Positions 3,001 to 6,000 of a stretch of 15,179 nucleotides of DNA are shown here, one piece after another. The stretch lies in IMG/VR virus record IMGVR_UViG_2690316346_000009; one strand, written 5' to 3'. The position numbers are program-made. This stretch comes from a virus (taxonomy: Duplodnaviria; Heunggongvirae; Uroviricota; Caudoviricetes). Position 1 is the first letter of the stretch. Every line of letters starts with the position of its first letter.

Positions 3001-6000
3001 CCGTTTCTGGCTGTGCATTCCTTCAGGGTAATAATCAGCATCCCTGACACCTGCCGCTGCCAGTTTCTGCCCGATGGTATTAACAAGCCCCGGACGCAAT
3101 AACCCCGCCTGGTAGAGACGCACCCGATAGCGTCCGTCCGGTACGATTTGCAGCTTATCCAGTTCGGCAAGTTGTTGTTCTCCAAGCCAGACAGGAGGCA
3201 CGCTGTCGCCAGCCAGTCGCCCGTCCTGTTCCTGCCACTGCTTCGCATGTGCCCACGCATCATTACCCGCAAAAATGATGACTTCCGTCATTTTGTCACG
3301 CGGCTGGTGTTTTAAATTTGGCGCTTTTTTCATTTCTGCTCTCTCCACGCGGCAATCATGTTTTTTAGTTCCTGTAGTTTTTTATCAACATCCATACATG
3401 ACACATGGTTATTTCTGGAAAGCGGGATTTCCCGCCTGAATCTGCTAATAAAGATCTCCACGTTCAGCGAACTATGAAATGAATAGCCATCACGAATAAA
3501 ATACACACGGTCAAACATCAGTTCTTTTACCGTTACTCTGTTACCGTTCTTATCCAGATAAATAGCGCCGGGGATAATTTTGGGGTGTGCATAACCGCTG
3601 GCAGTCAAGCCAGATAAATACGTTCTCATGATTATTTATCTCAGATTTGAATCAGTATTCGCTTTCTCTATGGCATTTAATGCATCTGTGGCATTTTCAA
3701 TGGTGCACCGTAACGAAATATCAAACTGCCCAAGCATTGCCAGTAACAAGCCAATATTACCCATGTCAATGCGCATAGCCTTTTCGTCATATTCCTCATT
3801 TTCTGACGCATGCCACATCAGGCTACCAATTGACGCAACAGCCATTGATATATTGTCAGTAGCCCCATCCGCAGCGGAATAAACCTTTTTAGCAATATCA
3901 TGCTCACAGTTAAAATGCGGATTAATCAGGTACTGGTAATTGGTCATGTCAGGCATGGCACACCTCCTGACGAATACGGGCGGCGAATACAGCAACACAA
4001 CCTGACGGGCAACGGTTACGCGCTTCGCGTTCCGTCCAGGCGGTTACGTGGATGATTTGAGATTCTCCGGCACTCAGGGCCAGAAAACGCCACACAAAGG
4101 CCGTTTGTGTGTGTACAAGGTGTGGTATATGATTTACGGCAACCATAACGGCTCCTCGTTTACGTTGTTGGTTAGAAGCCCTGCGAGTGGTAACGACACT
4201 TGCGGGGCTTCGTCGTTTCAATTGCTGAATTGCATGTATCAGCACTTGTGGTATTCACATTACATTTAGGTGAATACCATTTCAAGTCTTTTTTGGTATT
4301 CACTTTTGTATTACACTGCATCCCGTTATTAATGGGAGGTGCAAACATGTCCAGGAGTTCTGTTAACAATAAGTCACAGCAACTGAATGCCAGATTTCCA
4401 CATGAAGTAGTGAGTGGCATTGAGGCATCCCTACAGCCAGGGGAAACTAAAGCGAATTTTATAGTTACGGCTGTACGCGGTGAGATCGCCAGGCGCCAGG
4501 CAGAAGGAAGTGGAGAAAATCCCCTTGTGTCTTCACTGGATGCCCTAGCTAATGTCGAACAAATCGGCATCAAGGCAGCGGAGGAAATCGGGCAGCTTAT
4601 CACCGTTGCACGCGAAGAACTCCAGCGCCGCAAGGCCAAAGAATCAGAATAATCACTATCAGCGCCGTGGTGTGAGGAACTCCGGCGCATTGCTTTACAG
4701 GCGCACACAATGACCAACGAAGAATCAACCAAAAAAACATCACCTGCACGAAAAAGACGACGCAGAAAGAAAGAGCATGAATCAGAACGATTCGCGCCGT
4801 GTTCTTTTGCCCTTGAGAAGTACCTTAAAGAATACTCATCAAAGGAGAGAGCTTCGCAGTTATGGCAACGCACTGAAACAGACTGATAGCATTGCCCACC
4901 AGCCTGATAGCGGCTATCATTGACATGCTTATGTTTAGTGTTTCCAAACTGGCGACCGCCCCAGGTCGCCTTTGTTTTATGTGTCATATGCTCCCCTTTA
5001 CACTGCCTTACCTGAATTAATGCGATCCCGGCTTTTAACCCATTCCATAACCTCGGACAGCAGCCACCCTACAGAACGACCGCCCAGATTAAGACGTGAC
5101 GGAAAGCGCCCTTTTTTCTCCAGTTCGTAACGTGTAGTGCGGCACACTCCAGTTAACTTACGACATTCATCCTCACGGATTACGCGATCTTCATTTATTT
5201 CACGCATACAAAAACCTACATAAAAATTACGTATATAAACTTTTCTCTTAGCTGTAGATATATGAGATCGGATATTACTTAGATTCTTTTTCACCTCTTA
5301 AATTAAAAACACAACCATGCTGGTAATGACTCCAACTTATTGATAGTGTTTTATGTTCAGATAATGCCCGATGACTTTGTCATGCAGCTCCACCGATTTT
5401 GAGAACGACAGCGACTTCCGTCCCAGCCGTGCCAGGTGCTGCCTCAGATTCAGGTTATGCCGCTCAATTCGCTGCGTATATCGCTTGCTGATTACGTGCA
5501 GCTTTCCCTTCAGGCGGGATTCATACAGCGGCCAGCCATCCGTCATCCATATCACCACGTCAAAGGGTGACAGCAGGCTCATAAGACGCCCCAGCGTCGC
5601 CATAGTGCGTTCACCGAATACGTGCGCAACAACCGTCTTCCGGAGACTGTCATACGCGTAAAACAGCCAGCGCTGGCGCGATTTAGCCCCGACATAGCCC
5701 CACTGTTCGTCCATTTCCGCGCAGACGATGACGTCACTGCCCGGCTGTATGCGCGAGGTTACCGACTGCGGCCTGAGTTTTTTAAGTGACGTAAAATCGT
5801 GTTGAGGCCAACGCCCATAATGCGTGCAGTTGCCCGGCATCCAACGCCATTCATGGCCATATCAATGATTTTCTGGTGCGTACCGGGTTGAGAAGCGGTG
5901 TAAGTGAACTGCAGTTGCCATGTTTTACGGCAGTGAGAGCAGAGATAGCGCTGATGTCCGGCAGTGCTTTTGCCGTTACGCACCACCCCGTCAGTAGCTG

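Follow-up and report, generated by a model that had tools for sequence, protein, structure and literature searches.

The virus record IMGVR_UViG_2690316346_000009 of IMG/VR (Caudoviricetes) is a stretch of 15,179 nucleotides (nt), hereafter called the window, in which two related regulatory modules of a phage satellite, A and B, lie in tandem. In each module, an operon on the minus (−) strand begins with an Icd-like open reading frame (ORF) of 65–67 amino acids. Analysis of the leader of this operon led to the view, to which a probability of about 75% is given, that the opposite, plus (+) strand specifies a countertranscript of ~80 nt that resembles RepX, the antisense RNA controlling copy number in the IncQ plasmids R1162/RSF1010, and would cover the ribosome-binding site together with the AUG of the Icd-like first gene of the satellite primase operon.

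The predicted antisense RNA of module A (~80 nt, ~4141–4219, + strand) consists of a first stem-loop (SLI, 4141–4173), a linker (A4174), a second stem-loop (SLII, 4175–4211) and the tail GUCGUUUC (4212–4219). Its counterpart in module B (~6571–6648, + strand) is built from SLI (6571–6604), linker A6605, SLII (6606–6640) and a tail at 6641–6648. Both are matched by a covariance model, R1, which was built from 49 island sequences only and without IncQ sequences, i.e., at 4140–4220 over the full length (66.5 bits) and at 6570–6649 (75.7 bits) on the + strand; these matches overlie, as a matter of geometry only, the Shine-Dalgarno sequence and the ATG of the icd-like genes on the − strand. When folded whole, RNA A (−37.9 kcal/mol, z −5.7) and RNA B (−33.1 kcal/mol, z −4.9) adopt the same shape of a 5′ stem-loop SLI, a one-base linker, an SLII of 14–15 bp and a short tail. 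The lower stem of SLI is formed by the 5′ end, which pairs with a conserved GGUUA that also supplies the linker, and an anti-Shine-Dalgarno sequence is found in or beside the SLI loop (CUCCUC, within the loop, in RNA A). All three helices are supported by comparison of homologues: 93.9% of the cells pair and 14 of the 24 pairs show compensatory changes in a MAFFT alignment, and 96.4% and 18 of 24, respectively, in a model-fitted alignment (A5) of more diverse sequences, which leans towards structure. The unit is fully complementary to the Shine-Dalgarno sequence and the AUG of the first ORF.

Variation is greatest in the loops of SLI (1.47 bits) and SLII (1.32 bits) and in the middle of SLII (1.17 bits), whereas the linker (0.30 bits) and the lower stems (~0.55 bits) are conserved. 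RNAs A and B, which are identical at 56 of 79 positions, differ in both loops.

Fold, strand and candidate promoter

A preliminary description of the window had reported hairpins at 4175–4211 and 6606–6640, and the sequences it quoted are present there on the + strand. Fold, covariation and G·U asymmetry identify the first of them as SLII of module A, the terminator hairpin of the predicted antisense RNA; the second, which folds likewise and occupies the same alignment columns, is its counterpart in module B. Each forms a single hairpin that is far more stable than shuffled sequences. As had been described, the outer stem is common to both, whereas the inner stem and the loop diverge yet remain complementary; the hairpin of module B contains a 1-nt bulge. 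Folding of the operon leader in both modules had been proposed as a check, and hairpins do form on the − strand (−18.5 kcal/mol, z −5.6, for A; −15.2 kcal/mol, z −3.4, for B), but the + strand folds better (−27.9 kcal/mol, z −8.0, and −20.5 kcal/mol, z −6.0, respectively).

For comparison, 166 related loci were gathered via the Icd-like protein: 80 close relatives from IMG/VR, 80 more distant ones, five from reference genomes (Shigella, Hafnia, Rahnella, Pectobacterium, and Serratia), and one annotated Escherichia coli island. Among 135 distinct upstream regions, 126 have a hairpin just 5′ of the Icd-like gene; this number includes a few unrelated hairpins of paralogous genes, which were left out of later steps. 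The covariation that had been anticipated across related islands was found: in 56 distinct homologous segments of 64 nt, 95.1% of the cells hold standard pairs, and compensatory changes occur at 9 of the 14 hairpin pairs. These values were reached by none of 500 shuffles, and slid controls paired in only 39–48% of the cells.

The − strand had been regarded as the one on which the structure is selected. This view is contradicted by the wobble pairs, since 109 cells, distributed over 12 of the 14 pair positions, contain G·U on the + strand, vs. only three with A·C on that strand, which corresponds to G·U on the operon strand. In SLI, G·U pairs on the + strand are also found in the lower stem, where they occupy 37 of 49 rows at one pair. 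Furthermore, when the best hairpin was optimized separately for each strand in 74 variants, the mean energy was −23.6 kcal/mol on the + strand vs. −17.8 kcal/mol on the operon strand (Wilcoxon p = 1.6e-13), and the + strand fold was the more stable one in 71 of the 74 variants, with a difference of ~6 kcal/mol on average. The flanks of the hairpin differ in the same direction. The 12 nt that follow the G+C-rich stem contain 7.0 T on the + strand vs. 2.4 on the operon strand, where the background expectation is ~3.6 (local T frequency 0.30); the earlier statement that no U-tract follows on the − strand is therefore correct. In 52 of 56 sequences, the longest T run of the + strand tail measures 3–7, and both modules of the window have the U-rich tail GUCGUUUC on that strand. 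The combination that defines an intrinsic terminator, i.e., a G+C-rich stem-loop followed by a U-rich tract, is found on the + strand across the family, and the T-rich tail is maintained even though the promoter/operator DNA beyond it is mosaic and unrelated between islands. The mosaic junction between islands coincides with the U-tail of the hairpin.

These comparisons indicate that selection acts on the + strand, antisense to the operon. Because of the G·U asymmetry, the greater stability on the + strand and the U-rich tract on that strand only, the hairpin is best described as the terminator-type structure of an RNA antisense to the operon. Thus, of the earlier proposal that it is a leader structure rather than a terminator, one half stands, as it lies in the predicted 5′ leader and does not terminate the operon, and the other half does not, as it is of the terminator type on the + strand. 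The distance of about 30 nt to the ribosome-binding site requires correction as well: on the − strand, the Shine-Dalgarno sequence starts 17 nt (A) or 26 nt (B) past the hairpin and the ATG follows at 28 nt (A) or 35 nt (B).

Every one of the 46 distinct sequences (46/46) has a −10-like hexamer, TAnnnT, whose first base is located 47–50 nt 5′ of the base of the hairpin. Its variants are TATGAT, TATGCT, TAGACT, and, once, TATAAT. From the hexamer to the start-codon complement, the distance is 4 nt in some sequence classes and 10 nt in others, and that between the Shine-Dalgarno sequence and the hairpin varies from 17 to 26 nt. As start codon and Shine-Dalgarno sequence shift, the fixed spacing between hexamer and hairpin is no by-product of coding. 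Transcription is predicted to start ~7 nt past the hexamer, which yields RNAs of ~80 nt. On consensus, the candidate promoter of RNA A (4105–4133, + strand) comprises TTGTGT (4105–4110), a 17-nt spacer and TATGAT (4128–4133), and falls inside codons 5–14 of the icd-like gene. For RNA B, consensus and hexamer spacing point to the extended −10 sequence TGgTATGAT (6555–6563, + strand) as the candidate promoter; an extended −10 is also found in classes 4 and 5 and in IncQ. Two families of Icd-like paralogues that lack the hairpin were inspected by eye, and these lack the hexamer as well.

Relation to RepX and other antisense RNAs

RepX has been characterized experimentally as an antisense RNA of 75 nt that extends over the ribosome-binding site and the start codon of repA-repC (PMC8136791). 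Its two stem-loops are connected by GUUA and followed by a short 3′ tail; it is bound by FinO and reduces the plasmid copy number (PMC8136791). In the window, a lead to this RNA came only from a permissive Rfam scan of a small region of 181 nt, which returned a match to RF00043, the family of the R1162-like plasmid antisense RNA, at 4139–4212 on the − strand that is weak (16.6 bits, E 0.95) and far under the gathering threshold of 55 bits; the scan of the whole window returned nothing at the hairpin locus. As a positive control, the IncQ plasmid pMS260 (locus L167) scored 90.3 bits on the strand that encodes RepA, in a match (L167 1501–1574) that covers the hairpin, CUAACCACCAAC, GGAGG and AUGGCUAC in that order. 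The RF00043 model is therefore oriented like the repA mRNA, and the weak match in the window, on the operon strand, has the same orientation. As the model matches the sense strand of its target and not the strand of RepX, which carries the GUUA linker, strand calls made with it are inverted.

When the IncQ region is reverse-complemented, RepX shows the same shape in its minimum-free-energy fold as RNAs A and B, and both island RNAs have the architecture described for RepX, in which a GUUA linker joins two stem-loops and the 3′ tail is single-stranded. A 12-mer, GTTGGTGGTTAG (GUUGGUGGUUAG), is identical between RepX and RNA B. The IncQ RepX has TGATAGGAT within repA, an unrelated gene, ~3 nt further from the hairpin than the hexamer of the islands. 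Model R1 finds RepX over its full length and antisense to repA (L167 1493–1573, − strand) with 33.4 bits, and the best unrelated matches reach at most 17 bits. When 206 kb of loci were searched with the model, 84 of 85 diverse loci each yielded a single full-length match antisense to icd, and outside the islands RepX was the sole other match, save one to a reversed hairpin. These data point to RepX as a relative, and indeed the closest one, of the island RNA unit.

RepX has a promoter of the form TGnTAnnnT within the first codons of its target, at a distance from the terminal hairpin that is comparable with that of the candidate promoter in the islands. Both have an anti-Shine-Dalgarno sequence in SLI and two stem-loops linked by GUUA. 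They differ in their setting, as RepX is located on an IncQ plasmid and the island RNA on an integrated phage satellite, and in their target, which is the RepA helicase for RepX and a 65–67-residue Icd-like ORF that precedes a primase for the island RNA. The island SLII is longer (14–15 bp) than that of RepX, includes G·U pairs and leads into a canonical U-rich tail, and the loops are highly variable between islands. Another difference lies at the base of SLII, which in the islands is A-U or G·U paired, whereas RepX has an A·G mismatch there. A purine-purine A·G mismatch directly under the closing G-C pair of the terminator characterizes the FinO-specific ligands FinP and RepX, whilst a paired base under the G+C core is the pattern described for ligands of ProQ (PMC12001967). 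In the island SLII, this mismatch is absent, and the positions below the G+C core (pairs 14-52, 15-51, and 16-50) are A-U and G·U or G-C pairs. Thus, the base of the island hairpin resembles that of ProQ ligands, which may be taken as a hint, and only that, as to the chaperone.

FinP of F-like plasmids, which acts on the traJ leader, is another two-stem-loop antisense RNA (~79 nt) that lies over a ribosome-binding site and ends in a terminator hairpin with a 3′ tail, and it structurally resembles RepX (PMC8136791). It differs from the RNA proposed here in that it regulates conjugation rather than replication and depends on FinO; Rfam scans of the window gave no FinP match. 

Similar arrangements are known from the sar RNA of phage P22 (target ant), SymR/SymE, and R1 CopA (tap-repA). 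These are short cis-antisense RNAs whose promoter faces the target promoter and which lie over the ribosome-binding site of an ORF, either the first one or a leader, that governs the downstream genes through its translation. With these RNAs, the island RNA shares no sequence or model similarity, the score for the sar family (RF00262) being 11.9 bits vs. a threshold of 43, and structures and hosts differ.

The preliminary description had drawn an analogy with P4, which controls its replication operon through leader RNA processing. The CI RNA of P4 and the C4 RNA of P1 and P7 are, like the island RNA, small RNAs by which a satellite or phage controls its early or replication operon, and the P1 C4 RNA even targets the icd ribosome-binding site, but they are processed from the operon-leader strand, whereas the island structure is selected on the opposite strand. 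The analogy found no support in the searches: neither the whole-window nor the small-region Rfam scan gave a match to the C4 family up to an E-value of 10, and none of 50,697 phage records was matched in a blastn search, which means that P4 lacks the element at that sensitivity. A processed RNA of the C4/CI type was rejected for want of a model match and for its strand.

Proposed function and its alternatives

According to the proposed mechanism, each of the tandem modules would encode its own copy of the antisense RNA on the + strand, opposite the replication operon. Transcription directed by the hexamer, which lies within the first icd-like codons, would run back through the start codon and the Shine-Dalgarno sequence, and the resulting RNA would pair with the fully complementary operon leader, probably starting from loop-loop contacts by analogy with RepX and FinP. 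Pairing would cover the ribosome-binding site and the AUG of the Icd-like ORF and block its translation and, because the ORFs of the operon overlap, the block could spread to the downstream primase by translational coupling or polarity. In this way, replication of the satellite and a putative cell-division inhibitor would be held down, and the copy number would be set once the element is induced or episomal. The operon leader would then be a small-RNA target, which had been listed among the options earlier and is probably what it is. The variable loops and the middle of SLII would provide each satellite with its own specificity, so that co-resident modules such as A and B would not cross-repress; variation centered on the loops, as observed, would be expected if specificity resides there.

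A wider reading is offered more tentatively and may well prove too broad: RepX-like countertranscripts would be the copy-number and incompatibility determinants of a large group of enterobacterial satellites, namely those of the type int-AlpA-YlcI / Icd-like-DUF4222-primase, including those that encode a capsid, with loops under diversifying selection, an ancestry shared with IncQ, and ProQ as the probable chaperone. If so, several satellites, even in tandem, could replicate in one cell without cross-repression.

Several points weigh against the proposed countertranscript. Everything proposed about the RNA, from its existence and its ends to its effect, was deduced from sequence and by analogy. 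A simple promoter scan listed neither of the two proposed antisense promoters, and a conserved −35 sequence was sought across all classes and not found, TTGTGT with a 17-nt spacer being present in class 1 only. The tails in the window itself (GUCGUUUC and UUCGUCGUUUC), with a longest U run of 3, are among the weakest of the family, and the terminator scan called neither that of module A nor that of module B. As the homologues are related, the cell counts given above do not represent independent events, and the lean of the model-fitted alignment towards structure has already been mentioned. With respect to RepX, the RF00043 score of module A is sub-threshold, as stated above, and module B gave no RF00043 match; the E-values of model R1 are rough; and the likeness may be partly convergent, as an ATGGCT start accounts for both the 5′ AGCCAU and the GGUGGUUA with which it pairs.

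The alternatives can be weighed against the same data. The same RNA could serve as the antitoxin of a type I toxin-antitoxin-like pair that silences a toxic Icd-like inhibitor. The target ORF matches the Icd-like family NF033153, and the position of the promoter in the first codons, with the RNA extending over the ribosome-binding site and the AUG, corresponds to the layout of SymR/SymE. Toxicity of the Icd-like protein is presumed from the family name and the geometry, however, and the ORF is translationally linked to the primase operon, whilst replication genes are what RepX, the RNA's nearest relative, controls. As the principal role this one is rather unlikely, but antitoxin activity and replication control are not mutually exclusive.

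An improbable explanation is that the + strand hairpin is a mere insulator, which would terminate stray antisense transcription before it enters the divergent promoter/operator region, with no dedicated RNA being made. All evidence from strand and U-tract would fit any + strand terminator, and the proposed antisense promoter is weak by consensus. Such an insulator would not account for a covarying second stem-loop with an anti-Shine-Dalgarno sequence at a fixed distance, nor for a −10 hexamer at 47–50 nt in 46 of 46 sequences, nor for the detection of the whole unit over its full length by model R1, with RepX along with it.

A further alternative is a hairpin that acts in cis within the − strand operon mRNA, as an attenuator, processing site or stabilizer, without any antisense RNA. 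The hairpin does lie within the predicted leader, 3′ of the candidate operon promoters, it still folds on the − strand with the energies given above, and Watson-Crick covariation supports both strands equally. The G·U pairs, 109 vs. 3, favor the other strand, as they become A·C mismatches on the − strand, where moreover neither a U-tract nor another downstream signal follows. The T-rich + strand tail beside unrelated DNA, the −10 hexamer at fixed distance and the antisense-oriented match to RepX would be left unexplained, and a cis-acting leader hairpin is decidedly improbable. An attenuator or leader structure on the − strand was rejected on the G·U asymmetry and the side of the U-tract.

Finally, a DNA-level element, i.e., a palindromic protein-binding site or a cruciform or single-stranded-DNA hairpin in replication or packaging, is scarcely credible: the inverted repeat lies near operator-like repeats and the replication operon, and folding of single-stranded DNA of the + strand would be compatible with the data, but the arms vary freely whilst pairing is kept and wobble occurs on one strand only, which denotes a folded single strand, and the operator repeats differ in each island and sit elsewhere. 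A protein-binding palindrome in duplex DNA was rejected, as the arms vary with wobble retained on one strand.

Should the proposed countertranscript be made, the replication of phage satellites would be under an antisense control of the plasmid type, which current annotation misses. It would add a post-transcriptional layer to satellite induction, besides repressors and helper-phage inducers, link the replication modules of satellites and IncQ plasmids, and predict new clients of ProQ or FinO; the specificity of the loops would offer a concrete reason for the co-residence of related satellites. No Rfam family reached its gathering score in the window and 19 diverse loci, RefSeq/PGAP annotation shows nothing at the RNA site, and among the papers found on Icd-like genes, on phage-inducible chromosomal islands (PICI) and capsid-forming PICI (cf-PICI), and on RepX, none describes such an RNA in satellites. 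Hence, the kind of RNA is well known, and its occurrence in phage satellites seems to be novel.

The satellite modules and their surroundings

Sequences similar to the 95-nt region that contains the RNA are present in 1030 of 5426 complete E. coli genomes, at up to four places per genome, and the region is also found in Hafnia, Rahnella, Pectobacterium, and Serratia. Among the E. coli carriers of the element are many O157:H7 and other Shiga toxin-producing (STEC) strains. In the window, module A extends up to ~5321 and module B starts at 6091; the latter matches positions 3673–5190 of the former at 78–96% identity. They are separated by a copy of IS1 (5322–6089), which severs the operon of module B just 3′ of the icd-like gene. 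A second IS1 end is found at the right edge of the window, where 15129–15179 form an exact repeat of 51 nt. N bases occur at 6080–6090, at the IS1 terminus, and at 1990.

Each module contains a YlcI/YnfO-family gene on the + strand (NCBIfam NF041551; 4347–4652 in A, 6767–7072 in B) that is divergent from the − strand operon. The target genes, i.e., the Icd-like first ORFs, are located on the − strand at 3949–4146 (A; NCBIfam NF033153, 64.8 bits) and 6367–6570 (B; 71.2 bits) and are preceded by the Shine-Dalgarno sequences GAGGAG (4152–4157) and GAGG (6576–6579), respectively. In module A, the icd-like stop codon overlaps the start of the next ORF (ATGCCTGA). The rest of this operon (1942–3956, − strand) consists of a hypothetical ORF (3636–3956), a DUF4222 gene (3330–3629) and a truncated or rearranged gene of the primase family (1942–3348), the latter two of which overlap each other. 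Homologous E. coli islands are annotated as int – regulator – YlcI / Icd-like – hypothetical – DUF4222 – primase – capsid genes. Because of the gene order of the modules, the annotation of homologous islands and the existence of a circular record of the B type, the element is regarded as a PICI or P4-like phage satellite, not P4 itself. In some islands, extra Icd-like paralogues are found deeper in the operon (for example, regions starting with ATGGCTGTATCC and ATGGCTACTACC; “Icd-like x2/x3,” “ash family”); they lack both the hairpin and the antisense −10 hexamer.

The circular record is NZ_CP148328.1 from E. coli (locus L168; 10,790 bp), which was deposited as a plasmid and represents a complete satellite of the module-B type with int, AlpA, YlcI, Icd-like, DUF4222, and primase genes and a protease/capsid fusion. 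In the RNA region, the record and module B are 100% identical. To judge from this record, the satellite may be able to persist as an episome or to be assembled as one. In E. coli SCEC020022 (L001 10714–11547), a homologous satellite adjoins a truncated phage portal gene inside a lambdoid prophage; this type of satellite can therefore integrate within a helper-like prophage.

A weak candidate promoter for operon A was read by consensus at 4257–4285 on the − strand (TTGAAA, 17 nt, TAATGT); it would initiate transcription near 4250 and place the hairpin ~39 nt into the leader. For operon B, a promoter scan gave a candidate at 6677–6705 on the − strand (TTGACA, 17 nt, TAAAGT; 10 of 12 matches), with a predicted start near 6670, ~30 nt upstream of the hairpin. 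Three copies of an operator-like repeat, GGTATTCAC, are present in module A, at 4250–4258 (+), 4270–4278 (−), and 4295–4303 (+), vs. a chance expectation of 0.09, and the candidate promoter of operon A overlaps these repeats. Module B carries repeats of the GTCTTACA type instead (region 6692–6745), and other islands have yet different ones. Located between the divergent promoters, these repeats look like island-specific operators.

Within the icd-like coding sequence of module A, a terminator-like hairpin, CACACAAACGGCCTTTGTGTG, followed by GCGTTTTCTG, is found at 4091–4111 on the operon strand (−). It is kept at the DNA level in class-1 icd genes, is not found in module B, and could be either an internal attenuator or a coincidence of the codons for HTQTAFVWRF. 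Further downstream in the operon, the window contains a near-identical direct repeat (~1–1940 vs. ~1592–3531; spacing 1591 nt), which is exact over 400–578 vs. 1991–2169 and duplicates the 3′ part of the DUF4222 gene and the primase gene. Its junction adjoins the N at 1990 and truncates the primase ORF of module A; the repeat may be a genuine rearrangement or an assembly artefact.

Outside the modules, a weak Rfam match to Hrs1 (23.6 bits vs. a threshold of 56.4) was obtained at 11926–11971. This element is made up of an A-tract, a GC hairpin and a U-poor tail (AAAAAAAGCCCCCTCATCATGAGGGGG), lies between the convergent ORFs 11409–11927 (+) and 12009–13043 (−), and is probably a plain intergenic terminator.

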